A stretch of DNA of 64,000 nt from an uncultured virus (IMG/VR IMGVR_UViG_3300044653_000122) (lineage: Duplodnaviria; Heunggongvirae; Uroviricota; Caudoviricetes), in IMG/VR virus record IMGVR_UViG_3300044653_000122. One strand, given 5' to 3'. Positions 17,653-63,506 of this stretch are shown piece by piece (the stretch's first letter is position 1; each line of letters opens with the position of its first letter). The position numbers were made by a program, and so were the translations under genes. Under the pieces are notes generated by a model. The model was not told the origin of the DNA. It saw only the letters and a list, made by a program, of their open reading frames with translations, and searched no databases.

Positions 17653-17678
17653 CTACAACAGCTAGTGGGGCGGATCAA
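17653..17678 (-). promoter_or_regulatory. Class-1 motif TTGATC-N15-TGTAG
   Basis: ATG 7 nt downstream; back-to-back with the + copy at 17684. Confidence 0.8.
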
Positions 17679-17683
17679 AGACT

Positions 17684-17709
17684 TTGATCGGCCGGGCCGG
17701 TGTATGTAC
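17684..17709 (+). promoter_or_regulatory. Class-1 motif TTGATC-N15-TGTAC
   Basis: Divergent partner; the pair forms the inverted repeat GATCAAAG-A-CTTTGATC. Confidence 0.7.
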
Positions 17710-17739
17710 GTAGAGCGTCCCTGGGCCGGGACCACTAAT

Positions 17740-17768
17740 TTGACCTCCCGGCCACCATGTGCTACACT
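17740..17768 (+). promoter_or_regulatory. Canonical sigma70-type promoter of the GHKL operon
   Basis: TTGACC-N17-TACACT with extended TG; GGAGG SD 8 nt before ATG 17795. Confidence 0.75.
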
Positions 17769-17794
17769 GTATGACACACCGGGAGGTTGGGTAC

Positions 17795-19264
17795 ATGACG
17801 AAAGACGTGTCGTGGTTTACGGTGGACAAGCTGGGTTTGGCGAAGACCGTGCGGCGCCGCGGGTGCGCGTTCATCGGCTACGAGCTGGTGCAGAACTGCA
17901 TGGACACCGGCGCCAAGCGTATCGAGGTGGAGGTAACGCCCGTCCCTCGGTCTCCGAAAGTCTGCATCCGGGTGATGGACGACGACCCCGACGGGTTCAA
18001 GAACCTCTCCCACGCGTACACTCTGTTCGCCGAGAGCGACAAGAAGCGGGACGCAACGAAGCGCGGACGGTTCAACCTGGGGGAGAAGCTCGTGCTCTCC
18101 CTCTGCGAGAAGGCGCACATCGTCTCGACGAAGGGTTCGGTCGTCTTCGACGAGAAAGGACGCCGCGAGACACGCGACTACCAGGCCTACGGCACGACCT
18201 TCTCGGGCATCTTCCCCATGACGCGGGAGGAGGTGACGGAGATGATCGAGGCCCTCAAGCTCATCATCCCGACCGAGCAGTGCACGATCATCATCGACAA
18301 GGAGACTCTTCCCCAGCGCACAGCTCTCCACATCTTCTCGGCCACTCTCCCAACGGAGATCGCGAACGAAGAGGGATACCTCAAGCGCACGGAGCGCAAG
18401 ACGGATGTCCGTGTCTTCGAGCCCATCGTCCCAGGTCAGGCACGGCTCTACGAGCTGGGGATCCCGGTCGTGGAGATCGACCTCCCGTGGGACGTGGACA
18501 TTGGGCAGAAGATCCCCCTGAACACCGACCGAGATAACGTGATGCCCGTGACCCACAAGGCCATCTGCGTCGCCGTGGTCAACGCGATGCACAAGTACCT
18601 CAAGCCCGAGGAGGCCACGATCACCGGCGTTCAGGAAGCGCTCGCCGACAAGCGCATCGAGGAGGAGGCCGTCAAAACCATCCTCAACCACCAGCATGGC
18701 GAGAAGCGTGTGGTTCTTGATCCGCGCGATCCGGAGGCCAACGCCAGGGCTTTCCAGCAGGGTTTCACGGTCATCCGGGGCAATGCCTACTCGAAGGACC
18801 AGTGGGAGCAGATCCGTCGCGCCCAGGCAGCCCCCGCCTCGACGCATCTCTTCCCGACTCGGCAAATCTACTCGGATGATCCGAACGCGCCTCACGCCAA
18901 GACCATTCCCCAGGAGGACTGGACCCCTGGGATGAAGAACATCGCCGCCTACGCAACCGAGCTGGCGCGGAGGGTAATCCACAAGGCCATCAGCGTCCGG
19001 TTCGAGACTCGGTTCGGTGCTATCGACGCGGCCAACTACGGCAACGAGAGCCTCTGTTTCAACGTGAGCCGGCTGGGCTACGCTTGGTTCGACCAGGGGC
19101 CGACCGAGAAGGTGGACGAGCTGCTCATCCATGAGCTGGCCCACCAGTTCGGCACGCACCTCACCGACGAGTTCGACGATGGGCTGGCACGCATCGGCGC
19201 TCGGATGAAGACGCTGGCGCTCCAGGAGCCCGAGTTCTTCCGCAAGTACTTGAGGGACGCGTGA
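17795..19264 (+). CDS. GHKL (HATPase/MORC-like) ATPase with a C-terminal HEXXH motif
   Basis: YELVQNCMD N-box, DDDPDGF G1, RGRFNLGEK G2, GTT; C-terminal LLIHELAH. Confidence 0.75.
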   Translation: MTKDVSWFTVDKLGLAKTVRRRGCAFIGYELVQNCMDTGAKRIEVEVTPVPRSPKVCIRVMDDDPDGFKNLSHAYTLFAESDKKRDATKRGRFNLGEKLVLSLCEKAHIVSTKGSVVFDEKGRRETRDYQAYGTTFSGIFPMTREEVTEMIEALKLIIPTEQCTIIIDKETLPQRTALHIFSATLPTEIANEEGYLKRTERKTDVRVFEPIVPGQARLYELGIPVVEIDLPWDVDIGQKIPLNTDRDNVMPVTHKAICVAVVNAMHKYLKPEEATITGVQEALADKRIEEEAVKTILNHQHGEKRVVLDPRDPEANARAFQQGFTVIRGNAYSKDQWEQIRRAQAAPASTHLFPTRQIYSDDPNAPHAKTIPQEDWTPGMKNIAAYATELARRVIHKAISVRFETRFGAIDAANYGNESLCFNVSRLGYAWFDQGPTEKVDELLIHELAHQFGTHLTDEFDDGLARIGARMKTLALQEPEFFRKYLRDA

Positions 19265-22481: not shown

Positions 22482-22507
22482 TTGATCGGCATCTTCTCGG
22501 GTTGTAG
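22482..22507 (+). promoter_or_regulatory. Class-1 motif TTGATC-N15-TGTAG
   Basis: Upstream of 22544 (leadered). Confidence 0.7.
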
Positions 22508-24686: not shown

Positions 24687-24946
24687 AGCGCCTCCCCCAG
24701 GGAATTTGGAAGGACACGGGCTTCTCGGACACTAAGTTCAGGGTGCTCTACTACGACTCCAGGTCCAAATGCTACCGCATCCAGTACCTCAATATGATGG
24801 GTATGCGGATGTGGACCCCCATTGAGGAGTTTGGCGAACGGGGTCGGTTTCAGCCGATGGGGGCGTGGGGCTTCTTGCTCCAACAGAGGTTAGATCGAAA
24901 GGCAAGACGACGTCCCATGTACTGCGCCGCCGACGCAGCCCTTTGA
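24683..24946 (+). CDS. Hypothetical protein
   Basis: GTGA overlap; stop lies inside the class-1 motif. Confidence 0.55.
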   Translation: MKRLPQGIWKDTGFSDTKFRVLYYDSRSKCYRIQYLNMMGMRMWTPIEEFGERGRFQPMGAWGFLLQQRLDRKARRRPMYCAADAAL

Positions 24947-24968
24947 TCGCAAAGGGTTATCGGTGTAG
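24943..24968 (+). promoter_or_regulatory. Class-1 motif (also contains GGTGTAG)
   Basis: TTGATC-N15-TGTAG; its TGA is the upstream stop. Confidence 0.75.
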
Positions 24969-25989: not shown

Positions 25990-26204
25990 ACGACTTGTAC
26001 ATCCTCAAGACCCTCGCTGTCAAGATGGGTGGTACCCTTATCGATCGGTCCGTCGGCTTCTCCCTCGAAACTGGCGACGTATACAAACTCTACAGTGAGG
26101 GGGATCAGGTCATCCTTCGACAGGTTTGGGGGCGTGATAAGGGTCAGCGCTGCGCTATCGCCACCCTCTCTGAGCTGCGTAAAAATTCCCCCATGTTCTC
26201 TTGA
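25986..26204 (+). CDS. Small hypothetical protein
   Basis: ATGA overlap; stop lies inside the class-1 motif. Confidence 0.6.
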   Translation: MNDLYILKTLAVKMGGTLIDRSVGFSLETGDVYKLYSEGDQVILRQVWGRDKGQRCAIATLSELRKNSPMFS

Positions 26205-26226
26205 TCGGAGAGACTATCGACTGTAG
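26201..26226 (+). promoter_or_regulatory. Class-1 motif
   Basis: TTGATC-N15-TGTAG-N7-ATG. Confidence 0.85.
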
Positions 26227-26233
26227 AGGGGAC

Positions 26234-26611
26234 ATGATCACCAACACCCCCTCCGGTTCGACCACCCTGGTCCAGATTCGTGAGCGCGCTGCGAAGGCGG
26301 CCCTCCTCATCGAGAAGTGCAAGAGCCTCTCGGTGGCTGACGCGCTCGTTGCCCTCAAGGCCGACGCAGACCAGAGCCACGCACAGTTCCCCCAGTACAA
26401 GGGGCACTTCGACGGCTACGCCCTCTGCCGCGTGAAGAAGACCATCAAGACCAAGGCAGGAATCGCGTTCGAGAAGGGCGACCTTGCCATCATGACGCCG
26501 TTCAAGTCGTTCGATGTGTACAACCACGCGTTCGACAGCACCATGACGGTTTACTCGGCGCGCAACGGCGTCGACACGGTTGTTCGTTCCTGCGATGTCG
26601 AAAGCGTTTGA
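26234..26611 (+). CDS. Hypothetical protein (predicted leaderless)
   Basis: ATG 7 nt after the motif; strong GC3 bias. Confidence 0.75.
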   Translation: MITNTPSGSTTLVQIRERAAKAALLIEKCKSLSVADALVALKADADQSHAQFPQYKGHFDGYALCRVKKTIKTKAGIAFEKGDLAIMTPFKSFDVYNHAFDSTMTVYSARNGVDTVVRSCDVESV

Positions 26612-26633
26612 TCAGGGACCCCCAACGGAGTAG
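26608..26633 (+). promoter_or_regulatory. Class-1 motif
   Basis: TTGATC-N15-AGTAG-N7-ATG. Confidence 0.8.
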
Positions 26634-27062: not shown

Positions 27063-27178
27063 GGACGATCGTTCGATGTTGGTGCCGTTCAATGTGTCAA
27101 CTGCCATCGAAAAGAGTATGCCAGGAAGGTAATTGACGATCTCCTATCTTTTCACGGCGAGCGGTGTATTTATTTCTC

Positions 27179-29231: not shown

Positions 29232-29310
29232 GTTGCGAGACCGCGCCCGGCTCTCCTCGACAATAGACGAAATCATGCGCATGAGAGCATGAGAGGTGTA
29301 GTACCCGATC

Positions 29311-29734: not shown

Positions 29735-29760
29735 TTGATCGGAAGCACCACTCCCTGTAG
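29735..29760 (+). promoter_or_regulatory. Class-1 motif
   Basis: TTGATC-N15-TGTAG-N7-ATG. Confidence 0.85.
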
Positions 29761-30226: not shown

Positions 30227-30417
30227 ACGCCGCAATTCTCAAGCTCCTGTGCCTGCTCCCGCAGCAGGCACAGAGACAAGACGCCACTACCGAGCAGCTC
30301 CGTGACCTCGTGGTCTTTGCGAACCGGCTGGGTATGTACGACGCGGCCGACCTGCTTACCACGATGATCACCAAGGCAGACAGAAATTCTTTTGATCAGC
30401 AACCCTCTGCGCTGTAG
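30217..30417 (+). CDS. Small hypothetical protein
   Basis: QLRDLVVFANRLGMYDAAD; start may be GTG 30223. Confidence 0.55.
   Translation: MGVNAAILKLLCLLPQQAQRQDATTEQLRDLVVFANRLGMYDAADLLTTMITKADRNSFDQQPSAL
30392..30417 (+). promoter_or_regulatory. Class-1 motif
   Basis: TTGATC-N15-TGTAG-N7-ATG. Confidence 0.85.
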
Positions 30418-30424: not shown

Positions 30425-30715
30425 ATGAGCAAGAACACCTTCTCCGTCAAGTCCGAGATGTACGTCAACCTCAAGCGGTCGCGCTCCGTCGACGGTCCCT
30501 GGAAGCCCACCATCGAGGAGGCCGTCTCGGCGTACGCCGAGACGGTTGTCCGCAAGGAGCTGGCCAAGCACCTCATCTGCCGGCCCTTCATCGCCGAGAA
30601 ATGCGACGAGAAGGTGGCCCCGGCTCAGGACGGCCGGGGCGTGTGCTACAAAACGAACCAGGAAGCTACGTCGACTCTCAAGACCCAGCTCGCACGCCTC
30701 GGCCTTCATGTTTGA
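30425..30715 (+). CDS. Hypothetical protein (predicted leaderless)
   Basis: ATG 7 nt after the motif; stop lies inside the next motif. Confidence 0.75.
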   Translation: MSKNTFSVKSEMYVNLKRSRSVDGPWKPTIEEAVSAYAETVVRKELAKHLICRPFIAEKCDEKVAPAQDGRGVCYKTNQEATSTLKTQLARLGLHV

Positions 30716-30737
30716 TCGGACGGGGCCTCGATTGTAG
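30712..30737 (+). promoter_or_regulatory. Class-1 motif
   Basis: TTGATC-N15-TGTAG-N7-ATG. Confidence 0.85.
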
Positions 30738-30907: not shown

Positions 30908-31213
30908 ATGGCCGAGTGGTACCTCTTCCTCGACGACCAGGCCAATGAGCCAGGGATTCCCATGCGTGCAGCACCGTCAGGATGGACGGTAGCACGGACG
31001 AGTGTTGAGGCCGTCGCTCTAGTCGAACGGCAAGGCCCTCCTCAGGCGATGTCCCTGGACCATGACTTGGGCGGAGACGACACCGTCATGCGTTTTTTGC
31101 GGTGGTTGGCCGACACGGCCACCACACCCCCGAGCTACACGGTCCACAGCGCCAACCCCGTCGGACGGGACAACATCATCTCCTTCATGGAGTCGTGGAA
31201 GCGCTCCGTTTGA
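30908..31213 (+). CDS. Cyclic-phosphate-processing receiver-domain protein
   Basis: LFLDD...GW.VART..EA, SLDHDLG, VHSANPVG. Confidence 0.8.
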   Translation: MAEWYLFLDDQANEPGIPMRAAPSGWTVARTSVEAVALVERQGPPQAMSLDHDLGGDDTVMRFLRWLADTATTPPSYTVHSANPVGRDNIISFMESWKRSV

Positions 31214-31235
31214 TCGAGGTACGGACACCCTGTAT
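31210..31235 (+). promoter_or_regulatory. Class-1 motif
   Basis: TTGATC-N15-TGTAT-N7-ATG (opens a 22 aa ORF, 31243-31311). Confidence 0.8.
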
Positions 31236-31291: not shown

Positions 31292-31891
31292 GTGACCCAC
31301 GAGAACCATGACACCTTCATGGCCCGGTTGAGGCCCCACTTCGCCCCAAGCGGCGTCCGCAAGATCGAGCTGGCCTACATGCTCGGCAAGTACAGCCATC
31401 GGGCTCAGACCCGCAAGGAGGTCGACGAGCACGGGGAGCCAGTTCGCTACTTCGAGCACGTCCGTCGGGCGACCCTCGTAGGGCTCGACCTTGCGAAGAT
31501 CGTTCGACTTGACACGACCATCGCCCTCATTCTCCACGACACGCTGGAGGACACCCGGCTCACCCCGGAGATCATCGAGGACTGCTTCGGGTCCGACGTG
31601 TGCGGCATCATCAAGGTGCTTTCGAAGGTCCCCAAGGAGGGCTACCTGGACCGCTTCTACGTGTCCACCGACTGGCGCCCGTACTTCGCCAAGGCCTGCG
31701 ACCGGCTCGACAACCTCCAGTCCCTCGACCAGTCCCCAGTGGAGTTCCGGCGCAAGCAGGTCACCGAGACGCGAGACAAGTACTTTCGCCTCTTCGACCG
31801 CATGGTGACCTTGACCCCGGAGGAGTACCGTGACGGGGTCCGTCGGCTCCGCGACGAAATCCACAAGGTTACCGAATCTGTTTCGGTGTAG
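31292..31891 (+). CDS. RelA/SpoT-type HD hydrolase (small alarmone hydrolase-like)
   Basis: H.AQTRK...YFEH, ILHDTLEDT, KACDRLDNL. Confidence 0.8.
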   Translation: MTHENHDTFMARLRPHFAPSGVRKIELAYMLGKYSHRAQTRKEVDEHGEPVRYFEHVRRATLVGLDLAKIVRLDTTIALILHDTLEDTRLTPEIIEDCFGSDVCGIIKVLSKVPKEGYLDRFYVSTDWRPYFAKACDRLDNLQSLDQSPVEFRRKQVTETRDKYFRLFDRMVTLTPEEYRDGVRRLRDEIHKVTESVSV

Positions 31892-36243: not shown

Positions 36244-37125
36244 TCAGCCCCGACCGATGACGGGCCGGTAGCGCGGATCGACGGCGGACAGGGCCAGCTC
36301 CTCGTCGATCTCGGGGAGAGAGAGAAGCTCCTGCTCGTGTCCTGGGAGAGAGATGCACAGGTGGAGGGCGAGCATTTCCTCCGGGGGCGGGACCGTCCAG
36401 TCGTGGACGCAGATGGCATGCTGCTCTTCAAGATCGAAGAGCTGACGGCCCCCGAGCTTCGACTGGAGGAGCGATGGGCGCTCCCGGTTGCCGATGAGAT
36501 AGCGGTGTCCCGAGTCGGCGCCGACGGAAATGAAACACCCGGCAGAGCGGTAGTCGGCGATCTGGTCGGGCGTGAGAAAGGTCTCCAACACACGCGAAGC
36601 ACGGATGTCGGCCTCCGGGAAAGCCGGCATGGGGCAGCCGTTGACCGGACGTGCGACGGTCGCCGCAATCGCGGTCGTGGGCTCCTTGGGGGCGTCCGCC
36701 TTGGCCTTCTTCTCGGAGACCGGGGGCGCCTCTTCCTCCTCGGCCTTCTTCGGCATGTTGGAGTGGATCTCCTCCACACGCCCGTCGGCGAACTTCACCG
36801 CGGTGAGGAGCTTGCGGCTCGGCTTGAGTGCCTTCGCCAAGAACTTGGCGACGTCCTCGATCGGCGCGTTCAGGATCACTGTGACGCCCTTGTCGCCACG
36901 GTAAGCCGCGTTCGTGAGGGGGAGGAAGTCAGCCTCCGACGCCCATGACTTGCGGAGCCGCGTCGTCGACACGGCACGCGAACGCAGGGACTCCATCGCC
37001 TTCTCTTCCGTTCCCGTGAGCTGGAAGGCGCGGAGGGCCGTCTGCGACTTGCCCTTCTTCTCCAGCTTGATGTCCCCGTGGAACGACGGGATCAGCCACA
37101 CCATCTTCGGGATCGACTCGAACAT
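36244..37125 (-). CDS. Hypothetical protein
   Basis: GGAGG SD, strong GC3 bias; CVHDW.VPP.EE motif. Confidence 0.8.
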   Translation of the reverse strand: MFESIPKMVWLIPSFHGDIKLEKKGKSQTALRAFQLTGTEEKAMESLRSRAVSTTRLRKSWASEADFLPLTNAAYRGDKGVTVILNAPIEDVAKFLAKALKPSRKLLTAVKFADGRVEEIHSNMPKKAEEEEAPPVSEKKAKADAPKEPTTAIAATVARPVNGCPMPAFPEADIRASRVLETFLTPDQIADYRSAGCFISVGADSGHRYLIGNRERPSLLQSKLGGRQLFDLEEQHAICVHDWTVPPPEEMLALHLCISLPGHEQELLSLPEIDEELALSAVDPRYRPVIGRG

Positions 37126-37741
37126 TGTTGCGTGCCTCCATGTGCATGAGAAGAGTGTCGATGCGTGCCTGGATGACCGGGCGACGATCCTCGGGGAGCG
37201 TGGTCAGAAGGTTCGTGAGCCTCTCCAACTCGGTCGCCTCCTGAGTAGCCACTGTAGCGCGCTGCGCTTCGGCTTGGACCTGAGCGTTGTTGCCGAACGT
37301 CAACATGAAGTGCCGCTCGGCCTCTTCTCGGTCATTGGCGAACAGCCGGTTGCGCTGCGGCACGGGCTGCCCCACCTGTTCACGACCACCAGCCCCTTCT
37401 TCGAGAACCGCGAAGTCCTCGACCCTCTTAGCGCGCGTGCGCAAGATGGACTGACCGATGTTGCAGAGGCGAGAGGCCTCGGCGTACTTCCCGGGCTCGT
37501 TCCCACGAAGGATCTCGATAATCGCCTCGTCGATAGCGTTGATGGCCAGTTCGAGAGCGGCGCCAGCAGGGTTCTTCGCCACGCCACGGGCACCTTTCAT
37601 CTCTTCGGCTTGTGCCACGACTTCCTCCATTAGCTCGACAGCTCGGGTTTCAACCTGATTTTGTGGTGCCCCTGGCCCCAGTTCCTCCTGAGCACGCTGA
37701 AGCGCGATGGTGGCGAAACGGATAAGCCTCTCGGACACCAT
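36929..37741 (-). CDS. Helical hypothetical protein (197-nt overlap with the next gene)
   Basis: GGTGTA motif upstream. Confidence 0.65.
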   Translation of the reverse strand: MVSERLIRFATIALQRAQEELGPGAPQNQVETRAVELMEEVVAQAEEMKGARGVAKNPAGAALELAINAIDEAIIEILRGNEPGKYAEASRLCNIGQSILRTRAKRVEDFAVLEEGAGGREQVGQPVPQRNRLFANDREEAERHFMLTFGNNAQVQAEAQRATVATQEATELERLTNLLTTLPEDRRPVIQARIDTLLMHMEARNNVRVDPEDGVADPVVPRGHQAGEEGQVADGPPRLPAHGNGREGDGVPAFACRVDDAAPQVMGVGG

Positions 37742-38251: not shown

Positions 38252-38294
38252 GGCGATCAATGCCTACACCGAGGCCTCTCCGTGCGCCAACCTT

Positions 38295-38320
38295 TTGATC
38301 GAGCTACCTGCCGGGTGTAA
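38295..38320 (+). promoter_or_regulatory. Class-1 motif
   Basis: TTGATC-N15-TGTAA-N6-ATG. Confidence 0.8.
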
Positions 38321-39122: not shown

Positions 39123-39178
39123 GACGGCGCCACACTTACACCGGAAAACTGGGTCCGGTCCGGTGTATGGACATAGAT

Positions 39179-42102: not shown

Positions 42103-42120
42103 CGCGTGAGGCTACACCGA

Positions 42121-42970: not shown

Positions 42971-42996
42971 TTACAGCGGGAAGGTTGTTCGATCAA
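42971..42996 (-). promoter_or_regulatory. Class-1 motif
   Basis: TTGATC-N15-TGTAA-N7-ATG. Confidence 0.85.
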
Positions 42997-43051: not shown

Positions 43052-43077
43052 TTGATCAGAGAGCAGTCGAGCTGTAG
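43052..43077 (+). promoter_or_regulatory. Class-1 motif
   Basis: TTGATC-N15-TGTAG; ATG 13 nt downstream. Confidence 0.8.
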
Positions 43078-44068: not shown

Positions 44069-44094
44069 TTGATCGAGGGCTAGGCCGACTGTAG
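44069..44094 (+). promoter_or_regulatory. Class-1 motif
   Basis: TTGATC-N15-TGTAG-N7-ATG. Confidence 0.85.
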
Positions 44095-44872: not shown

Positions 44873-44898
44873 TTGATCGGGGCCGACGTCGACTGTAG
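44873..44898 (+). promoter_or_regulatory. Class-1 motif
   Basis: TTGATC-N15-TGTAG-N7-ATG. Confidence 0.85.
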
Positions 44899-45454: not shown

Positions 45455-45480
45455 TTGATCGTCGACTCCCCCAATTGTAG
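45455..45480 (+). promoter_or_regulatory. Class-1 motif
   Basis: TTGATC-N15-TGTAG-N7-ATG. Confidence 0.85.
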
Positions 45481-45898: not shown

Positions 45899-46476
45899 TG
45901 AGCGACGACTATTTTTACGACTACAAGAAGCGCCCCCAGACCCGAGGAGGGGGTGCCGTCACGACCCCCCACTCGGCAAGCATGATCACTTTGCTGGGTT
46001 CAGGGATCGTCTCGCACGGGCTCGCCCTCAGCCGCGACGAGAACAGAGCGCTCAACAAGCTCTACGGTCTCGTGCCCGAAAAGCCCCACCAGCGCCCACC
46101 CAAGCCCGTCTTCGAGCCCGACCCGGACTTGGACTACTTCGAGCGGCAGAGAGCCGAGACGAAGTTCAAGGAGGCCGTCAAGGCGTGGGAACTGTGGGAG
46201 GATCCCAGGCACATCATGCAGGCCGGTGCGGATCGCAACATGATCCGCCACGCTCAGGCGGACGGTCTCCGCCTCATGGCCTGGTTCGCCAAGTTCGTTC
46301 CGGCTGGTGAGGACCCTCTCAAGCACCTCATCCAGGTGGTCTCAAACGGGGGCTGTGACGTGGAACCCGAGGACATCGACTGGGCGATGGGTGAAAATTC
46401 GGGCATGGCCGAGGAGCCAGAGGAGTCCGTCCCCCCTGAGGCCCCGAAAAAGAAGCGTGGTGCGAAAGCCGCTTGA
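45898..46476 (+). CDS. Hypothetical protein
   Basis: TGATG coupling; stop lies inside the next motif. Confidence 0.75.
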   Translation: MSDDYFYDYKKRPQTRGGGAVTTPHSASMITLLGSGIVSHGLALSRDENRALNKLYGLVPEKPHQRPPKPVFEPDPDLDYFERQRAETKFKEAVKAWELWEDPRHIMQAGADRNMIRHAQADGLRLMAWFAKFVPAGEDPLKHLIQVVSNGGCDVEPEDIDWAMGENSGMAEEPEESVPPEAPKKKRGAKAA

Positions 46477-46498
46477 TCGTCGGGCTCCTCGACTGTAT
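46473..46498 (+). promoter_or_regulatory. Class-1 motif
   Basis: TTGATC-N15-TGTAT-N7-ATG. Confidence 0.85.
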
Positions 46499-46885: not shown

Positions 46886-47131
46886 GTGAGCGATTCCTGT
46901 AAGCACCTTATCCAGCTAGGGATCCCTCGTCGGCGGGTCAATGGCCTCAACGTCGAGGTGGGTCAGCCGCTCGATCGCTGTCGGATGAAAACGCCCGAGC
47001 ACTGGGGTGATGCCGACCCAAGGGCCGCCCGTTGGCTTCTCTCCGGGGGAGATCCTCTTGTCCTCGGGATCTGCACCCCTAACGGCAACTGCCCGCTCAA
47101 AATCTTTGATCGAGGGCCTTTACGGCTGTAA
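46886..47131 (+). CDS. Small Cys-containing protein
   Basis: Fills the gap between two motif units. Confidence 0.5.
   Translation: MSDSCKHLIQLGIPRRRVNGLNVEVGQPLDRCRMKTPEHWGDADPRAARWLLSGGDPLVLGICTPNGNCPLKIFDRGPLRL
47106..47131 (+). promoter_or_regulatory. Class-1 motif
   Basis: TTGATC-N15-TGTAA-N7-ATG. Confidence 0.85.
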
Positions 47132-47318: not shown

Positions 47319-47339
47319 TCCCACGGTGTACGCATCACC

Positions 47340-47852
47340 ATGGATAAGCTCGAACAAGCCGCGCGGAGCTTCGCTGAGGTAGCTCACGGCGATCAGAAGT
47401 ACGGTAAACACCCGTACGTAAAGCACTTGGCGGCTGTGCGAGCCGTCCTCGAAGACTTCGGCTTCAGTGGTGATCTTGGGGTTGCCGCGTGGCTGCACGA
47501 TGTTCTGGAAGACACGAAGGTGACGAGTGATCAACTAGAACTCGCGTTCGGATCGACGGTGACGCACCTCGTGTGGGCTGTCACGGGTGTGGGCGTCAAT
47601 CGCAAAGAACGCAACGAGTGCGCCTATGGACGTATCGAGCGTAACCCGAAGGCGATCATCCTCAAGCTCGCGGACCGGATCGCCAATGTCGAGGCGTGTG
47701 CTAAGACGCGGGACCACCGACTAGGGATGTACCGGCAAGAACACGTGGCTTTCAAAGCGCGCCTCGTCCGGCTAGCAAAGTTTCTCGACGAGGAAGAGAT
47801 CGTCATGGCCATGTGGGCCCGGCTTGATCTTGTTTTCTCTGACCCTGTTTGA
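47340..47852 (+). CDS. RelA/SpoT-type HD hydrolase (Mesh1-like), second copy
   Basis: AHGDQKYG.HPY..HL, AAWLHDVLEDT, KLADRIAN. Confidence 0.85.
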   Translation: MDKLEQAARSFAEVAHGDQKYGKHPYVKHLAAVRAVLEDFGFSGDLGVAAWLHDVLEDTKVTSDQLELAFGSTVTHLVWAVTGVGVNRKERNECAYGRIERNPKAIILKLADRIANVEACAKTRDHRLGMYRQEHVAFKARLVRLAKFLDEEEIVMAMWARLDLVFSDPV

Positions 47853-47874
47853 TCGGGGCCTTCGTTGACAGTAG
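47849..47874 (+). promoter_or_regulatory. Class-1 motif
   Basis: TTGATC-N15-AGTAG-N7-ATG. Confidence 0.8.
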
Positions 47875-48505: not shown

Positions 48506-48529
48506 TAGCCGCCGGTGTAGTAACCCCAC

Positions 48530-49192: not shown

Positions 49193-49350
49193 TCACGGAG
49201 CTGAGACCCCACCAAAACGGAGTTCTCGTGCGACAGGACGGCCTCTTCCGTAGCTCCTGTGGGTGGGGCTACGAAGAGCTGGAGGTGGATAGGGAGCCCG
49301 CAGTCGTCGGCCCCTCCGTATGGGAGCTGCTCAAGAGGCCCTTGGTGTAG
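49189..49350 (+). CDS. Small protein ending near PSVWELL
   Basis: GTGA overlap; its TAG stop overlaps GGTGTAG. Confidence 0.5.
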   Translation: MITELRPHQNGVLVRQDGLFRSSCGWGYEELEVDREPAVVGPSVWELLKRPLV

Positions 49351-50610: not shown

Positions 50611-50914
50611 AGTGGGCGCACCCAAACACAAGGCGGAAAAGTATGTCATCTACGGCACATCTGAGAGTTTCGACGACTTCGTCGACGCACTCCAAAGAGG
50701 GCGGGAACTTGGGCATGGCACCCGGATCGTCCGAGCATCCGACGGTGCCCTCCTCGCCTACTTTCAGACCTACGGCAGAGGAAAGGTTGAGGGCTTGGGC
50801 AAGCCTGCTCTGCCCCCGAAGCCGAAGCCGGTTCTTCAATCCGATGACGTGAGGTCTGGTCGTCGAGGGCAGAACGGTGTTCATCGATCCGTTCGACGAA
50901 GTCAGCTCAACTAG
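50597..50914 (+). CDS. Hypothetical protein
   Basis: Overlap-coupled ORF. Confidence 0.5.
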   Translation: MRLIRVGAPKHKAEKYVIYGTSESFDDFVDALQRGRELGHGTRIVRASDGALLAYFQTYGRGKVEGLGKPALPPKPKPVLQSDDVRSGRRGQNGVHRSVRRSQLN

Positions 50915-51351
50915 CTCACCTGCGTTGAGGCCTTACCGAAGACCTCCAGAACCCCCTCAATAACCTGAAGCACCCACTCCGTCCGAACAGACACACCGTC
51001 CTCTCCCAGCGCCCGCCTGGGATCGTCCGTAGAGACGGGTACCGGCCACATGCAGTGCGGCAGGTAGAAGTAGAAAGCGGTCCGGTTCGATGGCCAAGGA
51101 AATGGCAACGTTTCGATGTCTGGACGGTCTAGAACATACCCACAACAGTTCTTGTGGTCGAAGATCACAAGCTCGACACGACCACCTGGTAGCGCGAGCT
51201 TCCAAATGTCCCGCAAAGTTTCCAGCGTCCGCCAAGTGAACGCTGCATGTGAGAGCGACTGAAGCTCTTCCCGGCTCTGCGAGGATAAACGCGACACGAA
51301 CTGCCGATCGGGTATCCGCAGCGGGGGCAGCTTCAAGCCCTTGGGAATCAT
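50911..51351 (-). CDS. Hypothetical protein
   Basis: GGTGTAG upstream (divergent pair). Confidence 0.6.
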   Translation of the reverse strand: MIPKGLKLPPLRIPDRQFVSRLSSQSREELQSLSHAAFTWRTLETLRDIWKLALPGGRVELVIFDHKNCCGYVLDRPDIETLPFPWPSNRTAFYFYLPHCMWPVPVSTDDPRRALGEDGVSVRTEWVLQVIEGVLEVFGKASTQVS

Positions 51352-51405
51352 TAAATCCTGATTCTACACCGGGATCATCGACGTGGCGAGGTGTAGTGAT
51401 CAGAT

Positions 51406-51922: not shown

Positions 51923-52395
51923 ATCCAATACTGGTGCAGACCCCACTTCACCGTGATGGTCGCGTAGTGTTCTTCCAGAGCTTCCAGCTCCTTCGCGAAG
52001 GCCCTCTTGAACCATTTCATTTCCCACTCTGGATCGGCATGTTGTAGGTCTAGATGAATCTCGACGTCGTCATCCCAGTCCGGTCGAGGATCTCCCTGCC
52101 GGCGCACGTTTGGAACGAGCCAGAGCACCTTGCGGTAGTAATCCTCCGAGTGGATCTCGTGTAGCTGCTCGCCTGTGATCTCAGAGTGGTCAGGGTAAGC
52201 CGGGACCGTGATGGGGACCTTCCCGTTAGACGCCCCACACGTCGCGCAGAACTTGCCCGCGGCGGCCGGCTGGATCTTCGTTGGGTGCTTCGAGCATTCG
52301 GGAACCGTGCACCCCCAGACGAAGTCCTCACGCGTCGCCGGCTGGTACAGACACTCGACGTACGGACCGAGGTACAGGCACTTATGGCTGCTCAC
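51919..52395 (-). CDS. Zn-ribbon hypothetical protein
   Basis: YLGPYVEC, KFCATCG. Confidence 0.7.
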   Translation of the reverse strand: MSSHKCLYLGPYVECLYQPATREDFVWGCTVPECSKHPTKIQPAAAGKFCATCGASNGKVPITVPAYPDHSEITGEQLHEIHSEDYYRKVLWLVPNVRRQGDPRPDWDDDVEIHLDLQHADPEWEMKWFKRAFAKELEALEEHYATITVKWGLHQYWM

Positions 52396-52691
52396 GGTTC
52401 CTCGTAGACTGCCTCGATCTCATCCACGCCGAACGCGACCCCGCTCCCATCACTGTACTCGCAATCGAGGACAGGATCGTTGTTCACCACGCCGTGGAGA
52501 CCCTCCTCGTGGAGACCCTCGACCTTGACCCACATGTGCTCGGTTGAAGGGAGCTTCGTCCTCGGGTCGGTTGCTGGAAACCCGAGCTTCACGTACTTGC
52601 CGACGAAGGTCTTGGGGTCCTTGCCCGTGAACGCGCCCGGCTTGCTTGCATGCGTCGGGCAAACCAGCCCGATGTTGTCCATTGGTTCCAT
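52392..52691 (-). CDS. DUF2314-like protein
   Basis: VKLGF...EHMWV.V...GVVNNDP. Confidence 0.55.
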   Translation of the reverse strand: MEPMDNIGLVCPTHASKPGAFTGKDPKTFVGKYVKLGFPATDPRTKLPSTEHMWVKVEGLHEEGLHGVVNNDPVLDCEYSDGSGVAFGVDEIEAVYEEP

Positions 52692-52712
52692 GATCGTTAC
52701 TACACCACTCCC

Positions 52713-53390: not shown

Positions 53391-54083
53391 TCACGCGGAC
53401 GCTTCCCAGAGGGCGTTGAGACGCGCGACCTCTTTGCGTACGATTAGAAGCATCTTTTTGATCTCGGGCCCCGCATGCTTGACCTGAAGAGCGAGCTTCT
53501 TATCACGCCACTCCACGAAGTTCGTCGCGTGGAGTGGCAAGATCCCAGCCAGATCCTTTGAAAACGCCGCTGCGACCTCTTCGTCAAAGAACAGGCTCTC
53601 GGAGTAGCCCGTGAGGATCGTGTTGACCTCCGGGCCGATGTAGACGCCGAGCTGGTCCGTGACGCACCAGCGAAGAGTCTTGGGAAGTTTCAACGCCTCC
53701 TTGAGGTTATCGACGACGAGGATCGGCCACGCCTGGTAGCCGTCGTAGACCGTGAAGGGCACGGGCTCGTCGAAGACGTTGGGCGTGACGGCGTCTTTCT
53801 GGAACCGTCTCTTTTTCTTGCCGATCTTGAGGGCCATCCATCGGGTCTGGCTATAGATCAGGCACGATTCCCAACCATGGCAGTGCGAGGCGTAGTCGAA
53901 CCCCACGGCATCCGAGCTGTTGTCGTAGTCGAGAGCCCCCTCGTCGCCCAGGCCGGGCCTTGACGAGATGCTGTCGCCATCACCGAGAACGTCAGACCAC
54001 TTGCGCCAGTTCTTGCGCATGAACTGGACCATCTGCTTGCGGAGCTTAGTGCTACGCGCCCGGATCGCGATGCTGTAGCCCAT
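53391..54083 (-). CDS. Hypothetical protein
   Basis: ATG 8 nt after GGTGTAG. Confidence 0.7.
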
Positions 54084-54165
54084 ACCCGGATCTACACCAA
54101 CTTGCCCTTGAGGAGCTTGCCCAGCCACCCGTAGGCCAGTCCGACCTTGGTGGAGGCGATGACGT

Positions 54166-54522
54166 TCACGCGGCGTTCCTCCGAAAGCCGCTGCGGTGCT
54201 GCGAGCAGAAGGCATAGGCCTCGCGGGCCCGCTCGATCATCCGGTCGAGAACCCCATCGACCGTTCCCGTGCGGTGTACCCGGGTGCCCTTGAAGATGCC
54301 GCGCTCCCCACGCACTGCCACAACCCGGATGGCATCTTGGCCGCAGCGACGGGCCACGCTCGACCCCTGCCGGATCGACGTGTAGACCTTGACCACGTAG
54401 CTGGCGTCAGCGTTATGCGCGCGGCCGTAGACGATCTCCTCGCCCCGCTGCTCCAGCCGCCGAAACCCAGCCGACTCCAGCCGCCCGATGATCGCTTCCG
54501 CAGGGACCTGAACGTAGCTCAT
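54166..54522 (-). CDS. Hypothetical protein (predicted leaderless)
   Basis: VKVYTSI...R.CG.DAIRV...RVHRT; ATG 7 nt after the motif. Confidence 0.75.
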   Translation of the reverse strand: MSYVQVPAEAIIGRLESAGFRRLEQRGEEIVYGRAHNADASYVVKVYTSIRQGSSVARRCGQDAIRVVAVRGERGIFKGTRVHRTGTVDGVLDRMIERAREAYAFCSQHRSGFRRNAA

Positions 54523-54529: not shown

Positions 54530-54555
54530 GTACACCGCCAGGCGGCGTCGATCAA
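54530..54555 (-). promoter_or_regulatory. Class-1 motif
   Basis: TTGATC-N15-TGTAC-N7-ATG; its TGA is the upstream stop. Confidence 0.85.
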
Positions 54556-54958: not shown

Positions 54959-54984
54959 GTACATTCCGTCAACTTCGCGATCAA
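54959..54984 (-). promoter_or_regulatory. Class-1 motif
   Basis: TTGATC-N15-TGTAC; leadered gene. Confidence 0.75.
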
Positions 54985-55239: not shown

Positions 55240-55599
55240 TCAACACGGTTCGATCACGATGTCGGCCGCCGTGATACGAGCACCCTGGATCTTCCGCCAG
55301 ACGTACCCACCCCCAGTTTCGTAAACGCCAGGAGGTACGTCCACGACATAACATTGACCCTTGAAATCCACGAGGAGGAATGCGTGGTCATCCCCTTCCT
55401 GTCCTCCGTCTTGGATATCCACGTCGGGAAGCGCCGACGCAATGACCGTACGCATGGCGTCTGTGACTCGATCACATACGCCTCCCGTACCCAGCTCTTC
55501 GTCCACGCCATCCTCATCCTGTTCCCAAGCATCCACGACAGCCTGTGCCGCCACAGCCATCTGGTTACGGAGAGCGTGAAGATCAGAACGAAGACTCAT
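55240..55599 (-). CDS. Hypothetical protein (predicted leaderless)
   Basis: GGVCD...HA...YETGGGY.W; ATG 7 nt after the motif. Confidence 0.75.
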   Translation of the reverse strand: MSLRSDLHALRNQMAVAAQAVVDAWEQDEDGVDEELGTGGVCDRVTDAMRTVIASALPDVDIQDGGQEGDDHAFLLVDFKGQCYVVDVPPGVYETGGGYVWRKIQGARITAADIVIEPC

Positions 55600-55606: not shown

Positions 55607-55632
55607 CTACAAACGTGGAACTGCCCGATCAA
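55607..55632 (-). promoter_or_regulatory. Class-1 motif
   Basis: TTGATC-N15-TGTAG-N7-ATG. Confidence 0.85.
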
Positions 55633-55684: not shown

Positions 55685-55710
55685 TTGATCGGTAGCGGTC
55701 TAGATTGTAC
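55685..55710 (+). promoter_or_regulatory. Class-1 motif
   Basis: TTGATC-N15-TGTAC-N7-ATG. Confidence 0.85.
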
Positions 55711-56214: not shown

Positions 56215-56245
56215 GAAGGGCCCTCTCAGGGCCCTTCTTTCTTTT
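56215..56245 (+). terminator. Rho-independent terminator whose U tract runs into the next class-1 motif
   Basis: GAAGGGCCCT-CTC-AGGGCCCTTC then TTTCTTTT(GATC). Confidence 0.9.
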
Positions 56246-56269
56246 GATCGAGACCGTCCCGAGTTGTAG
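56244..56269 (+). promoter_or_regulatory. Class-1 motif
   Basis: TTGATC-N15-TGTAG-N7-ATG. Confidence 0.85.
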
Positions 56270-56596: not shown

Positions 56597-56622
56597 TTGA
56601 TCGTAAGAGTCTCCGACTGTAG
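56597..56622 (+). promoter_or_regulatory. Class-1 motif
   Basis: TTGATC-N15-TGTAG; ATG 10 nt downstream. Confidence 0.8.
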
Positions 56623-58833: not shown

Positions 58834-58859
58834 TTGATCGACGGAGCCCTCGCTTGTAG
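58834..58859 (+). promoter_or_regulatory. Class-1 motif
   Basis: TTGATC-N15-TGTAG-N7-ATG. Confidence 0.85.
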
Positions 58860-59040: not shown

Positions 59041-59076
59041 TTGTTGTTGATCCGAGCCGGTGTAAAGTAGGTGTCC

Positions 59077-60194: not shown

Positions 60195-60220
60195 TTGATC
60201 GACCAAGCCTCCGGCTGTAA
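60195..60220 (+). promoter_or_regulatory. Class-1 motif
   Basis: TTGATC-N15-TGTAA-N8-GTG. Confidence 0.8.
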
Positions 60221-60885: not shown

Positions 60886-60911
60886 TTGATCGATCCTCGT
60901 GCCGGTTGTAG
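60886..60911 (+). promoter_or_regulatory. Class-1 motif
   Basis: TTGATC-N15-TGTAG-N7-ATG. Confidence 0.85.
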
Positions 60912-61514: not shown

Positions 61515-61540
61515 TTGATCGAGCCTCGGGTGGGCTGTAG
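61515..61540 (+). promoter_or_regulatory. Class-1 motif
   Basis: TTGATC-N15-TGTAG-N7-ATG. Confidence 0.85.
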
Positions 61541-62181: not shown

Positions 62182-62712
62182 ATGAAGTTCTCCTACCGCA
62201 AGCAAGGCCCTTCCGGCCGAGGGAAAGGCCGTATCCGCTACCTCGTCGACGCCGAAGAGAACGGAAGCATCCGCTTCTACATCGGTACCCTCGAAGGCTT
62301 CGGCGACTCCTGGACCCATGACACCGGCGACAAGAACGCCCGGATCTTCAAGTCCCGAAAGGAAGCCGCCGACGACCTCGCCTGGCTCTATGACAACAAG
62401 GGCCGGGGCTGGATCTTCGTCCTCGCCATCGTCAAGGGGCTCATCGAGCACGAGGACGCGGCGAGCTACTTCGGATCGACCATGGGCCTCGCCGCCCACA
62501 CGGACGAAGCGATCCGAAAGGGACTCCTTCTCGATGAGACCCCGGAGGGGAAGCACCGGCTCTCCTCCTACCTCAAGGTCACCAACCTCGGACGCAAGCT
62601 CTACACGGAGTTGGGGCTCGACAAACTCCCGCAAAAGAAGCTCTCCCGCGCGTACATGTGGGACTGGAACCAGACCCTCGGGATCACCTGGATCAGCAAA
62701 CTCCCCACCTGA
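62182..62712 (+). CDS. Hypothetical protein with a possible winged-helix C-terminus
   Basis: KGLL...LKVTNLGR. Confidence 0.7.
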   Translation: MKFSYRKQGPSGRGKGRIRYLVDAEENGSIRFYIGTLEGFGDSWTHDTGDKNARIFKSRKEAADDLAWLYDNKGRGWIFVLAIVKGLIEHEDAASYFGSTMGLAAHTDEAIRKGLLLDETPEGKHRLSSYLKVTNLGRKLYTELGLDKLPQKKLSRAYMWDWNQTLGITWISKLPT

Positions 62713-62722
62713 GAGATCGAAG

Positions 62723-62920
62723 ATGCCCTACGTCCCTCCGTTCTACCAAGACGTCACCTTCACCTACGAAGACGGTCGACCCTTCGTCCGCCCCATCCGG
62801 GCTGACTTCAAGACCGAGACCGACTGGCTCGCGGCCATTCACAAGTTCAACACGGAGGTCACGAACGAAGCCAACCGGGCCTTCGCTGACCAGTTCCGCA
62901 AATCTCTGCGCTCCGCTTGA
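62723..62920 (+). CDS. Small hypothetical protein
   Basis: Stop lies inside the class-1 motif. Confidence 0.65.
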   Translation: MPYVPPFYQDVTFTYEDGRPFVRPIRADFKTETDWLAAIHKFNTEVTNEANRAFADQFRKSLRSA

Positions 62921-62942
62921 TCCAACCCAAGGTCGATCGTAG
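62917..62942 (+). promoter_or_regulatory. Class-1 motif
   Basis: TTGATC-N15-CGTAG-N8-ATG. Confidence 0.75.
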
Positions 62943-62950
62943 GCGGACAC

Positions 62951-63484
62951 ATGAACATCACCTTCCACTCCCTCCAGGCCCTCGACATCACCTACGACGA
63001 CGTACACAGCGCTGTCGACTGGGTCCAGAGGTCCGTCACCGTCTACGGCAAAACCCACCCGCAGCCCCGCCTCACCAAGTGGTACGGCGAGGTCCCCTAC
63101 CTCTACTCGGGCCTGACCTGGGAACCGGCTGCAATGCCCCAGGTCATTCAGACTATCCGGACTATCGTCGAGGTTCTCACCCGAACCAACTTCAACTCCG
63201 TCCTCTGCAACCTCTACCGGGACGGATCCGATTGCGTCGGCTGGCACGCCGATGACGAACCCATCTTCGGCGGAGACCCCGTCGTCGCCTCTGTCAGCTT
63301 CGGCGCCACCCGCACCTTCAAGCTCCGCCACAACACGACCAAAGAGGTCCAGAGCTTCGAGCTGACCGACAAGTCCCTGTTCGTCATGGGCAAGGGCATC
63401 CAGACCGACTGGAAGCACACGATTCCCAAGACCACCCGCCCCGTCGGCCCCCGCATCAACCTCACTTTCCGCCAGACCGTTTGA
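62951..63484 (+). CDS. alkB: AlkB-family 2OG-Fe(II) dioxygenase (ALKBH2/3-like)
   Basis: QPRLT.WYG, YSG, FNSVLCNLYRDG.D.VGWHADDE, ASVSFGA.R.F, WKHTIPK, RINLTFR. Confidence 0.92.
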   Translation: MNITFHSLQALDITYDDVHSAVDWVQRSVTVYGKTHPQPRLTKWYGEVPYLYSGLTWEPAAMPQVIQTIRTIVEVLTRTNFNSVLCNLYRDGSDCVGWHADDEPIFGGDPVVASVSFGATRTFKLRHNTTKEVQSFELTDKSLFVMGKGIQTDWKHTIPKTTRPVGPRINLTFRQTV

Positions 63485-63506
63485 TCCGGCCCACCCGGAG
63501 CTGTAG
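63481..63506 (+). promoter_or_regulatory. Class-1 motif
   Basis: TTGATC-N15-TGTAG-N7-ATG; its TGA is the alkB stop. Confidence 0.85.

Follow-up and report, generated by a model that had tools for sequence, protein, structure and literature searches.

The IMG/VR record IMGVR_UViG_3300044653_000122 comes from an uncultivated huge phage (about 0.5 Mb) from a soil metagenome, and the 64,000-nt stretch of it analyzed here (hereafter the window) carries 32 exact copies of a two-box element, TTGATC-N15-NGTA, 26 on the forward (+) and six on the reverse (-) strand. Judging from sequence comparison, this signal very probably serves as a promoter belonging to the phage lineage itself, and transcription very probably starts at or next to the start codon of the gene that follows, so that the mRNA would need no ribosome-binding site. 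The promoter reading and the leaderless reading appear well supported by the geometry of the sites and by comparison with related huge phages; we infer the start site, the leaderless state, the reading protein and the timing of the two-box genes. The explanation as a whole, i.e., a lineage-specific two-box promoter, leaderless mRNAs and a phage-encoded sigma factor as the reader of the boxes, is considered reasonably probable.

The number of copies far exceeded the chance level, which in 100 dinucleotide-preserving shuffles of the window had a mean of 0.14 (standard deviation 0.35, maximum 1). All 26 forward and five reverse coordinates listed by the initial annotation were found again, together with one reverse copy that it had missed (38236-38260), and its two further statements, that the spacer is fixed and that the motif is missing from the first 17 kb, held as well: the spacer was 15 nt in 32/32 copies, a scan of spacers from 8 to 23 nt gave a signal solely at 15 (26 + and six -) with 0-2 matches at each other length, and no copy was located before position 17654. 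Searching TTGATC-N15-TGTA with exactly one mismatch returned five sites, namely the four AGTA or CGTA members of the 32 and one stray site at 12593 on the reverse strand, and versions with two mismatches occurred at chance frequency (26 versus 24.5 expected). Because degenerate copies are nearly absent, the boxes must be regarded as essentially invariant. The aligned sites gave the logo (a/t-rich)-T-TTGATC-G-N14-TGTA-G-rrGgg-n-C-ATG, in which the upstream element ends in ATC in 32/32 sites, the downstream element starts with TGT in 28, CGT in two and AGT in two, a G is present at -5 in 23/32 and a C at -1 in 26/32. Depletion of GATC in the window was also looked for; GATC was not depleted, and GATC avoidance or methylation was rejected as an explanation on this ground.

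Genes were called with our own simple codon-bias caller rather than taken from a curated annotation. All 32 copies point at the start of a coding open reading frame (ORF) within 61 nt. The ATG follows the pentamer at exactly 7 nt in 22 of the 32, the same count as in the initial annotation, and 21 of these ATGs open ORFs of 48-177 aa with a third-position GC content of 0.80-0.95 in 20 of them (0.57 in the ORF downstream of 55632 on the reverse strand). The 22nd, at site 31210, opens an ORF of less than 30 aa, and the likely gene there starts from a GTG 17 nt past the pentamer. In the remaining copies the gene starts lie 6, 8, 8, 10, 13, 17-23, 19, 20, 36, and 49-61 nt past the pentamer; copies with longer leaders carry AGGAGG or AAGGAG, and most leadered copies still have a pyrimidine-purine step 7 nt past the pentamer. 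Genes starting at most 8 nt from the pentamer differed from motif-less genes in three respects: the base at -1 was C in 24/24 versus 26/53 (p = 2e-6), which agrees with and sharpens the earlier remark that a pyrimidine always precedes the close-start ATG, the start codon was ATG in 23/24 versus 34/53 (p = 0.002), and the A content of the first codons was 0.33 versus 0.24 (p = 4e-4). Purines, and G in particular, are abundant in the 7 nt that separate TGTAG from the ATG. The layout at these genes is of the leaderless type, with a box a few bases before the ORF, an AUG start and no properly spaced Shine-Dalgarno (SD) sequence.

Eight of the copies form four back-to-back pairs between divergent genes, an arrangement for which an RNA-level element would not account. 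The first pair consists of 17654..17678 on the reverse strand (TGTAG, ATG at 7 nt, gene 17645..17457, 62 aa) and 17684..17708 on the forward strand (TGTAC, overlapping GGTGTAT), the latter leadered and preceding the gene 17771-19264, which encodes a 497-aa HATPase_c_3 protein and whose ortholog in the closest relative examined also has an upstream two-box site. In this pair (17654-17708) the two TTGATC boxes form a near-perfect 17-bp palindrome. The second pair comprises 38236..38260 on the reverse strand (CGTAC, start at 19 nt, gene 38215..37745, 156 aa) and its divergent partner 38295..38319 (TGTAA, ATG at 6 nt, gene 38327-38605, 92 aa). In the third pair, 42972..42996 on the reverse strand (TGTAA, ATG at 7 nt, gene 42963..42583, 126 aa) faces away from 43052..43076 (start at 13 nt, gene 43091-43816, 241 aa, GmrSD_N/DUF262), and in the fourth, 55608..55632 on the reverse strand (ATG at 7 nt, ORF 55599..55240, 119 aa, the ORF with the weak coding signal mentioned above) faces away from 55685..55709 (TGTAC, ATG at 7 nt, gene 55718-56209, 163 aa).

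The upstream regions of many genes without TTGATC carry a second signal that the initial annotation had missed, yGGTGTA(G)-N8-11-start, here called the one-box class. GGTGTA is present in 48 copies in the window versus 13.4 expected. A plausible start follows 22 of these at 5-13 nt (14 at 8-9 nt), and no upstream box is conserved among them. Outside the two-box class, 22/45 copies have a qualifying start 4-13 nt downstream versus a background of 9.2% (p = 8e-12), and a control with 59 permuted hexamers gave 10%. One-box sites are also present in the first 17 kb, ahead of nucleotide-metabolism genes. Since the GGTGTA class and the TTGATC class both contain TGTA, this tetramer can be regarded as the common core of two promoter architectures. 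In extended -10 promoters (TGn-TATAAT) a TG at -15/-14, one base ahead of a canonical -10 hexamer, makes the -35 box dispensable; the one-box class works similarly in lacking an upstream box but is not a member, its GGTGTA core being without a TATAAT-like hexamer.

The following mechanism is proposed for both classes. Counted from the A of an ATG 7 nt past the pentamer, TGTA(G) would be a -10-like element (T-12, G-11, T-10, A-9) and (t)TTGATC(g), at -33 to -28, a -35-like element. RNA polymerase would start at the start codon or within a base or two of it, and as a consequence most two-box genes would be expressed from leaderless mRNAs; genes starting further downstream would have a short leader with an SD sequence. 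The yGGTGTA(G) element without an upstream box would constitute a one-box promoter class ahead of more conserved genes. The bipartite promoter put forward by the initial annotation, with boxes near -33 and -12 and +1 on the A of the ATG or within 1-2 bases of it, thus gains support from the comparison with relatives described below. The most likely reader would be the host core polymerase equipped with a phage-encoded, divergent sigma factor resembling sigma-24 and the extracytoplasmic function (ECF) sigma factors, whose conserved region 2 would read TGTA and whose variable C-terminal domain would read the lineage-specific upstream box. A G at -5, as found in most two-box sites, contacts sigma region 1.2.

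Alignment of the 497-aa protein recovered 80 IMG/VR loci, and related huge phages were compared with the window. The exact TTGATC motif was absent or at the level of control patterns in seven related huge-phage records, a motif scan of IMG/VR returned 34 contigs with a single copy each (consistent with chance), and a metagenome scan returned at least 124 stretches; among those listed, all had a single copy apart from an unrelated bacterial contig of low GC content, in which a gene and its promoter are duplicated. The closest relative examined, G001 (529 kb; marker-protein identity to the window 53%), has a two-box class of its own, GATGGATC-N15/16-TGTAG. ATGGATC-N16-TGTA occurs there in 32 copies versus none for the control pattern and none in four other relatives, and TGGATC-N15/16-TGTA gave 45 sites, with the ATG 7 nt past the pentamer in 29 and 8 nt in six; the same G-rich stretch and C precede the ATG as in the window. 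One of these sites is found ahead of the G001 ortholog of the 497-aa gene and another ahead of the G001 sigma-like gene described below. With GATGGATC in the place of TTGATC, the architecture is evidently conserved and the upstream box lineage-specific. Most of the 45 sites cluster near the record ends (422-524 kb and 6.8-8.5 kb) ahead of small genes, a distribution that points to accessory or early genes grouped in a terminal block.

The one-box signal was found more widely. Scanning 400 kb each of G001 and of G006 (marker-protein identity 40%) for TGTA-Nk-ATG revealed peaks at k = 9-11 in the former (20, 41, and 26 versus about 8) and at k = 9-10 in the latter (34 and 23 versus about 10). 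In G001 the orthologs of window one-box genes retain a GTGTA box in 5/5 cases with differing flanking bases. No clear two-box class was detected in a third relative, G003, in which TTGACA was not enriched either; a TTGACA-N17/18-TAAGAC-like site about 45 nt before its sigma-like gene is a single case and a possible host-type promoter.

A candidate for the reading protein was identified in the relatives. Each of the five related huge phages searched has a gene for a conserved protein of 318-473 aa that resembles sigma factors and belongs to a family with 247 representative clusters. Each of the five matches the Pfam model Sigma70_r2 (PF04542) weakly and below the cut-off (best 20.8-22.1 bits versus 24, best E-value 3.4e-4), and two database relatives of the family carry a precomputed PF04542 match. 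The most conserved part is a stretch resembling regions 2.3/2.4, the C-terminal part is variable, and region 2 contains a large insertion. The JGI annotation of the G001 member reads sigma-24 family protein. An AlphaFold model of the protein (pLDDT 88.5) was used for a wide fold search, in which sigma factors occupied nine of the top ten rows (Z 6.7-7.7); matches to sigma-2-only folds had root-mean-square deviations of 2.6-3.8 over 76-90 residues, and the gp79/gp36 complex of phage phiEco32 was among the rows, weakly (Z 5.5, and E = 2 in a Foldseek search). A search with PF00562 detected no polymerase beta-like subunit in 5/5 relatives and produced matches in 14/14 control genomes. It is plausible from these comparisons that the sigma-like family reads the boxes. 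The sigma-like protein in 5/5 relatives and a TGTA register equal to that of phiEco32 gp36 make the phage-encoded sigma factor that the initial annotation had considered plausible, and none is encoded in the window itself. The product of one two-box gene, the window ORF 54552-54941 on the reverse strand, matched Sigma70_r2 with E = 0.004 among 131 proteins scanned; a search of the Protein Data Bank (PDB) gave it no support, and it was not counted as a sigma factor, the match probably being due to chance. A second conserved protein of about 270 aa without a Pfam family (L243:662-1474, reverse strand) adjoins the sigma-like gene in G003, G004, G005, and G006, is encoded apart from it in G001, and could be a sigma partner.

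The closest known parallel is phage phiEco32. Promoters of phiEco32 read by the phage sigma factor gp36 conform to the consensus tAATGTAtA, and transcription begins 6-8 bp beyond this element (PMC8948821). In the cryo-electron microscopy structure of the open complex, base pairing ends at -12T and unwinding begins at -11G (PMC12276001). As in the window, TGTA is part of the conserved element of these middle and late promoters, which gp36 reads together with gp79; their -12T/-11G register is that of the window sites if +1 is the A of the ATG, and the reader is a divergent phage sigma factor with sigma-2-like and sigma-4-like domains. Transcription starts 8-10 nt past TGTA in phiEco32, compared with 8 nt in the two-box class and mostly 9-10 nt in the one-box class, where the starts are deduced from ORFs. 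The differences are that TGTA is flanked by AA in phiEco32 but by GG (one-box) or unconstrained bases (two-box) here, that the following tA is not conserved here, that in the two-box class an invariant upstream box is present in addition, always at 15 nt, and that the window promoters abut start codons and number dozens per 64 kb versus six per genome. Furthermore, the phage studied here is about 0.5 Mb in size and known from sequence alone.

A two-box counterpart is found in Salmonella phage 7-11, whose late promoters (GTAAtg-N16-aCTA) are read by the phage sigma factor gp47 (PMC8948821). Like the window sites they consist of two short boxes with a fixed spacer, there recognized by a phage sigma factor on the host core polymerase, and the related phages 7-11 and phiEco32 use diverged sigma factors and different promoter "dialects" at corresponding genome positions (PMC8948821). 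A two-box promoter with a diverged sigma factor in phage 7-11 thus provides a precedent for promoter dialects. Its box sequences are different, its promoters number eight and precede late genes, and they are not reported to abut start codons. Sigma factors have also been described in jumbo phages that lack a polymerase (PMC7824862).

Promoters of ECF (group 4) sigma factors, e.g., B. subtilis sigma-W with TGAAAC ... CGTA, have spacers of 14-17 bp and adhere closely to their consensus (PMC5758882). The two-box class shares with them two short near-invariant boxes, a spacer within this range (15 in 32/32) and an xGTA -10 box. The G001 sigma-like gene has an upstream two-box site, an arrangement resembling that of autoregulated ECF sigma factors; a difference is that the sigma-like family has the large region-2 insertion and falls below the Pfam cut-off. 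Leaderless mRNAs arise in Deinococcus-Thermus from a -10 motif, TANNNT, adjacent to ORFs (PMC12340547). The likeness lies in a -10-type box a few bases before the ORF and an mRNA without, or with a very short, leader; in addition, the -10 box is active alone and strengthened by a -35 box, which parallels the one-box and two-box classes, and the motif helps to correct start-codon annotation, as does that of the window. The Deinococcus-Thermus motif is, however, a host housekeeping TANNNT, in contrast to the phage-lineage TGTA(G) without T at the last position. Promoter-class switching is known from gp39 of Thermus phage P23-45 and from T4 AsiA (PMC4124052). Two architectures in one phage, with and without an upstream box, could provide temporal control in the window phage as well, but the promoters switched there are host sigma-A/sigma-70 promoters with canonical boxes, and no gp39-like or AsiA-like protein was found here. 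Promoters of the type TTGATC-N15-TGTAG or GGTGTA were not found described in the open-access literature searched.

Several observations weigh against this explanation. Pairing of the two-box upstream regions with the anti-SD sequence was about as strong as that of other genes (mean -5.7 versus -4.9 kcal/mol), which is compatible with a very closely spaced SD sequence before the two-box ATGs. The earlier statement that there is no room for a properly spaced SD sequence stands as to the gap of just 7 nt between box and ATG and needs the reservation that this gap is rich in G and can pair with the anti-SD sequence. In the one-box class most starts follow the pentamer at 8-9 nt rather than 7 nt, and some transcripts may for this reason have leaders of 1-2 nt or start differently. 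The one-box signal is weak in G003, and retention of the box at orthologs is uneven (3/4 in G003, 0/3 in G006). The AAC and CGT typical of ECF promoters are largely missing, ATC replacing AAC and TGT replacing CGT in 28/32 sites. No sigma or polymerase gene was found among the window proteins, so that the link between sigma factor and boxes rests on association in relatives with 40-53% marker identity. Finally, the fold match of the sigma-like model is middling (Z < 8) and possibly reflects a common helical arrangement, Foldseek gave nothing at E <= 0.001 (with sigma-H at the top of its list), and a PDB profile search with the family gave no match.

Among the other explanations the one that fares best, although we consider it unlikely, is that the two-box sites are classic early promoters read by a host sigma factor (housekeeping, or alternative/ECF) and that the phage sigma-like protein reads only the GGTGTA class. 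TTGATC matches TTGACA at 4/6 positions, and if TG is counted along with the N15 spacer, TAG is 17 nt away. The position of the G001 sigma-like gene behind a two-box site fits a class active before the phage sigma factor exists, the contents of the classes follow the usual early-versus-middle pattern, with mostly small ORFans with few orthologs behind two-box sites and conserved genes behind one-box sites, and the unrelated bacterial contig that matched twice resembles an ordinary TTGATC-N17-TAGAAT promoter. The possible -10 hexamers nevertheless fit poorly. Measured from TTGATC, TGTAGn lies at 15 nt and TAGnnn at 17 nt; the former has a G at position 2 in 32/32 sites and is no sigma-70 -10 hexamer, and the latter has T as its sixth base in 0/32 and would place the start 2-3 nt inside the ORF, unless the gap were an unusually short 4 nt. 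A sigma-70 consensus scan of positions 44001-64000 yielded four sites versus 2.8 expected, none of them at the motif, which confirms the misfit to the sigma-70 consensus pointed out by the initial annotation; such consensus sites being at chance level counts against host promoters generally, with the qualification that the consensus of the host may differ. The boxes are invariant, unlike those of typical host-sigma phage promoters, and the presence of GATGGATC in G001 and of neither box in four other relatives resembles co-evolution with a phage factor.

Still less probable, in our estimation, is that the boxes are promoters read by a factor outside the sigma-70 family, i.e., a phage RNA polymerase or a phage activator replacing -35 recognition, as the MotA/AsiA system of T4 does. 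The upstream box is centered near -30 and varies between lineages, the second conserved protein next to the sigma-like gene in 4/5 relatives has an unknown fold, and Pfam can miss divergent phage polymerases. On the other hand, the PF00562 search that was negative in 5/5 relatives did recognize 14/14 control genomes, no MotA-like or AsiA-like match was found among the window proteins, and a sigma-type open complex agrees with the start at a pyrimidine-purine step, with the -12/-11 register and with the G at -5 (PMC12276001).

That the motif is no promoter but an operator bound by a protein, or a signal for translation or RNA processing that keeps a set distance to the start codon, is very improbable: the fixed distance to the ATG, the G-rich stretch that pairs with the anti-SD sequence and the upstream stop codon inside TTGATC in 8-11 units, as in coupled translation, would suit it, but the divergent pairs lack a co-oriented upstream gene, the leadered members keep the boxes while they lose the ATG distance and gain a normal SD sequence, 15 variable bases between two invariant boxes are the signature of a two-domain DNA reader, and the TGTA register is that of the solved phage-sigma open complex (PMC12276001). 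That GGTG or TGATC could act as an SD sequence by pairing to the 16S tail was examined by eye and rejected because of wrong spacing.

With a phage sigma factor as the probable reader of the boxes, the promoters would belong to a kind already known, that of phage-sigma promoters; what is new is the lineage-private upstream box, the TGTA core that the two-box class has in common with a one-box class found across the clade, and the way in which the units abut start and stop codons like cassettes. We tentatively propose that a single phage sigma factor reads both classes, region 2 recognizing TGTA and a fast-evolving C-terminal domain co-evolving with the upstream box (TTGATC in the window, GATGGATC in G001 and further sequences in other lineages), and that a 45-bp promoter plus a leaderless ORF forms a portable cassette by which small accessory genes could be gained, lost and shuffled without host promoters or ribosome-binding sites, the regulon being private to the lineage. 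To our knowledge, nearly everything known about huge phages comes from metagenomes, and we know of no account of their expression programmes. A promoter grammar consisting of a shared TGTA, a conserved one-box class and lineage-private two-box classes would allow such programmes to be read from sequence, e.g., for assigning regulons, correcting starts (27179), finding small ORFs (44102-44248) and predicting genes translated without a ribosome-binding site. The natural series of sigma/promoter pairs with differing upstream boxes would further offer a window on the evolution of sigma region 4 specificity, and such pairs of huge phages could serve as orthogonal expression parts.

The packing of the two-box units is tight. 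In eight of 32 units by a strict ORF test and in nine by the gene table (union 11), TTGATC contains the TGA with which the gene before it ends, which places consecutive genes exactly 29 nt apart. Among these are the forward sites 26201..26225 (gene 26234-26611, 125 aa), 26608..26632 (AGTAG; gene 26641-26931, 96 aa), 30712..30736 (gene 30745-30906, 53 aa), 46473..46497 (TGTAT; gene 46506-46871, 121 aa) and 63481..63505 (gene 63514-63900, 128 aa) and the reverse site 54531..54555 (TGTAC; gene 54522..54166, 118 aa; terminator-like hairpin just upstream), all with the ATG at 7 nt (distances given for two-box sites are the nucleotides between pentamer and start codon). The ATG is likewise at 7 nt at 29735..29759 (gene 29768-30226, 152 aa), which has a hairpin and T-run just upstream, and at 56244..56268 (gene 56277-56555, 92 aa), whose box is abutted by a strong hairpin and T-run at 56213-56239. 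Further members with this distance are 30392..30416 (gene 30425-30715, 96 aa), 44873..44897 (gene 44906-45439, 177 aa), 45455..45479 (gene 45488-45898, 136 aa), 47106..47130 (TGTAA; gene 47139-47318, 59 aa), 47849..47873 (AGTAG; gene 47882-48055, 57 aa), 58834..58858 (gene 58867-59040, 57 aa), 60886..60910 (gene 60919-61167, 82 aa), and 61515..61539 (gene 61548-61844, 98 aa), all on the forward strand, as is 44069..44093, behind which the small ORF 44102-44248 (48 aa, third-position GC 0.90), reported initially as missed by the ORF track, was recovered.

The other two-box sites have different start distances. At 22482..22506 the gene starts at 36 nt (22544-23101, 185 aa), at 24943..24967 at 20 nt with AGGAGG in the leader (24989-25747, 252 aa), and at 31210..31234 (TGTAT) the ATG at 7 nt belongs to the short ORF noted above and the likely gene runs from GTG 31253 to 31891 (212 aa, HD domain). 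The reverse site 54960..54984 (TGTAC) is leadered, with AAGGAG followed by a GTG at 17 or 23 nt (gene ending at 54552, 127-129 aa). At 60195..60219 (TGTAA) a GTG follows at 8 nt (gene 60229-60411, 60 aa). In agreement with the initial annotation, an RNA ligase gene (56633-57286, 217 aa) follows the copy at 56597..56621 with its start at 10 nt, a gene for an AlkB-like 2-oxoglutarate-Fe(II) oxygenase (62951-63484, 177 aa) follows that at 62917..62941 (CGTAG) with its ATG at 8 nt, and the DUF262 gene at 43091 follows the copy in the third divergent pair. Whether by these or by the small genes, the two-box set might amount to an early host-takeover regulon, as was suggested initially.

The earlier description of one promoter per gene proved too strong. 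Our gene table lists about 90 genes beyond 17 kb, for which there are 31 two-box and 15 one-box promoters, and several units hold 2-4 genes. Terminator-like hairpins occurred at chance frequency (14 versus 15.2 expected), and folding energy upstream of two-box units was no stronger than in controls (-12.0 versus -13.6); terminator-insulated units were rejected as a rule on the basis of the chance-level hairpins, with exceptions at 56213-56239 and 54564-54581. The starts implied by the boxes differ from the longest-ORF choice at 27179, 8558 (-), 42102 (-), and 61548; for the ADP-ribosylglycohydrolase gene, for instance, the box implies ATG 27179 and not GTG 27164, and simple gene callers are misled by the in-frame TTG inside TTGATC.

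One-box sites in the first 17 kb comprise GGTGTAA at 8002..8008 (-; ATG at 9 nt, gene 7992..7726, 88 aa), with the box kept in the G001 and G003 orthologs, GGTGTAT at 8568..8574 (-; ATG at 9 nt, gene 8558..8019, DUF3307), GGTGTAG at 8602..8608 (+; ATG at 9 nt, gene 8618-9241, NT5C nucleotidase), with the box kept in the G003 ortholog, GGTGTAC at 9303..9309 (+; ATG at 9 nt, gene 9319-9912, phosphoribosyltransferase), and GGTGTAG at 12178..12184 (-; GTG at 11 nt, gene 12166..11630, thymidine kinase). GGTGTAA at 17038..17044 (-) precedes an ORF of 201 aa (17029..16424) with a GTG at 8 nt. The ADP-ribosylglycohydrolase gene (27179-28093) has GGTGTAT at 27163..27169 (+; ATG at 9 nt), a box kept in the G001 ortholog, and is followed by GGTGTAG at 29295..29301 (+; GTG at 9 nt, gene 29311-29637) and at 31885..31891 (+; ATG at 8 nt, gene 31900-32112). 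GGTGTAT at 37747..37753 (-), with an ATG at 5 nt (ORF 37741..36929), is a doubtful member.

Downstream of these, GGTGTAA at 39136..39142 (-; ATG at 13 nt, gene 39122..38607) is kept in the G003 ortholog, and GGTGTAT is found at 39162..39168 (+; ATG at 10 nt, gene 39179-39910) and 40245..40251 (+; ATG at 9 nt, ORF 40261-40470). GGTGTAG at 42112..42118 (-) has its ATG at 9 nt (gene 42102..41767), and GGTGTAC at 47325..47331 (+) precedes an HD-domain gene (47340-47852) with the ATG at 8 nt. GGTGTAG recurs on the forward strand at 48514..48520 (ATG at 9 nt, gene 48530-49192, SIMPL/DUF541) and 49344..49350 (ATG at 11 nt, gene 49362-50078) and on the reverse strand at 51364..51370 (ATG at 12 nt, ORF 51351..50911), 52700..52706 (ATG at 8 nt, gene 52691..52392) and 54092..54098 (ATG at 8 nt, gene 54083..53391). 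GGTGTAA at 59059..59065 (+) stands 5 nt before a GTG (gene 59071-59472), and the G001 ortholog has GGTGTAA 9 nt before an ATG.

A strain about 99% identical was compared over 42950-62949 and differed by 187 substitutions, and none of the 40 listed falls in a box. An insertion of 551 letters in this strain, at 60177/60178, lies 17 nt ahead of the TTGATC box that begins at 60195, and small insertions or deletions are present between or just before boxes at 43018, 47104, and 55665; together these look like the gain or loss of a gene cassette at promoter boundaries.

The window opens with tail genes, and most of its proteins have no known function. Positions 1-7404 hold large forward genes (an open-ended ORF of 1322 aa, then 399, 395, and 345 aa) in which each stop abuts the next start. 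Neither promoter class is present there, and the genes probably form a tail module whose transcription begins outside the window. No near match to the window was found in a phage collection, a single-protein scan of IMG/VR gave no relative, and tRNA and Rfam scans of the window were both empty. A haloarchaeal virus, with archaeal TATA/BRE promoters and leaderless mRNAs, was considered and rejected on the median protein isoelectric point of 7.1. Relatives of the thymidine kinase reach at most 47% identity and are scattered across many phyla, the DUF3307 protein points to actinophages, and a 420-aa protein to Caulobacter and Pseudomonas jumbo phages. The 497-aa HATPase_c_3 protein (17771-19264) is a huge-phage hallmark with 2067 relatives at E <= 1e-10, many of them on contigs of 0.3-0.66 Mb, and the closest (67-77% identity) on contigs of 0.45-0.55 Mb. 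A 389-aa protein (19261-20430) overlaps its end; this protein and that encoded at 33394-34584 both match phrog_15934 and one and the same locus each in G003 and G006, and judging from these matches they are probably paralogs within the window.

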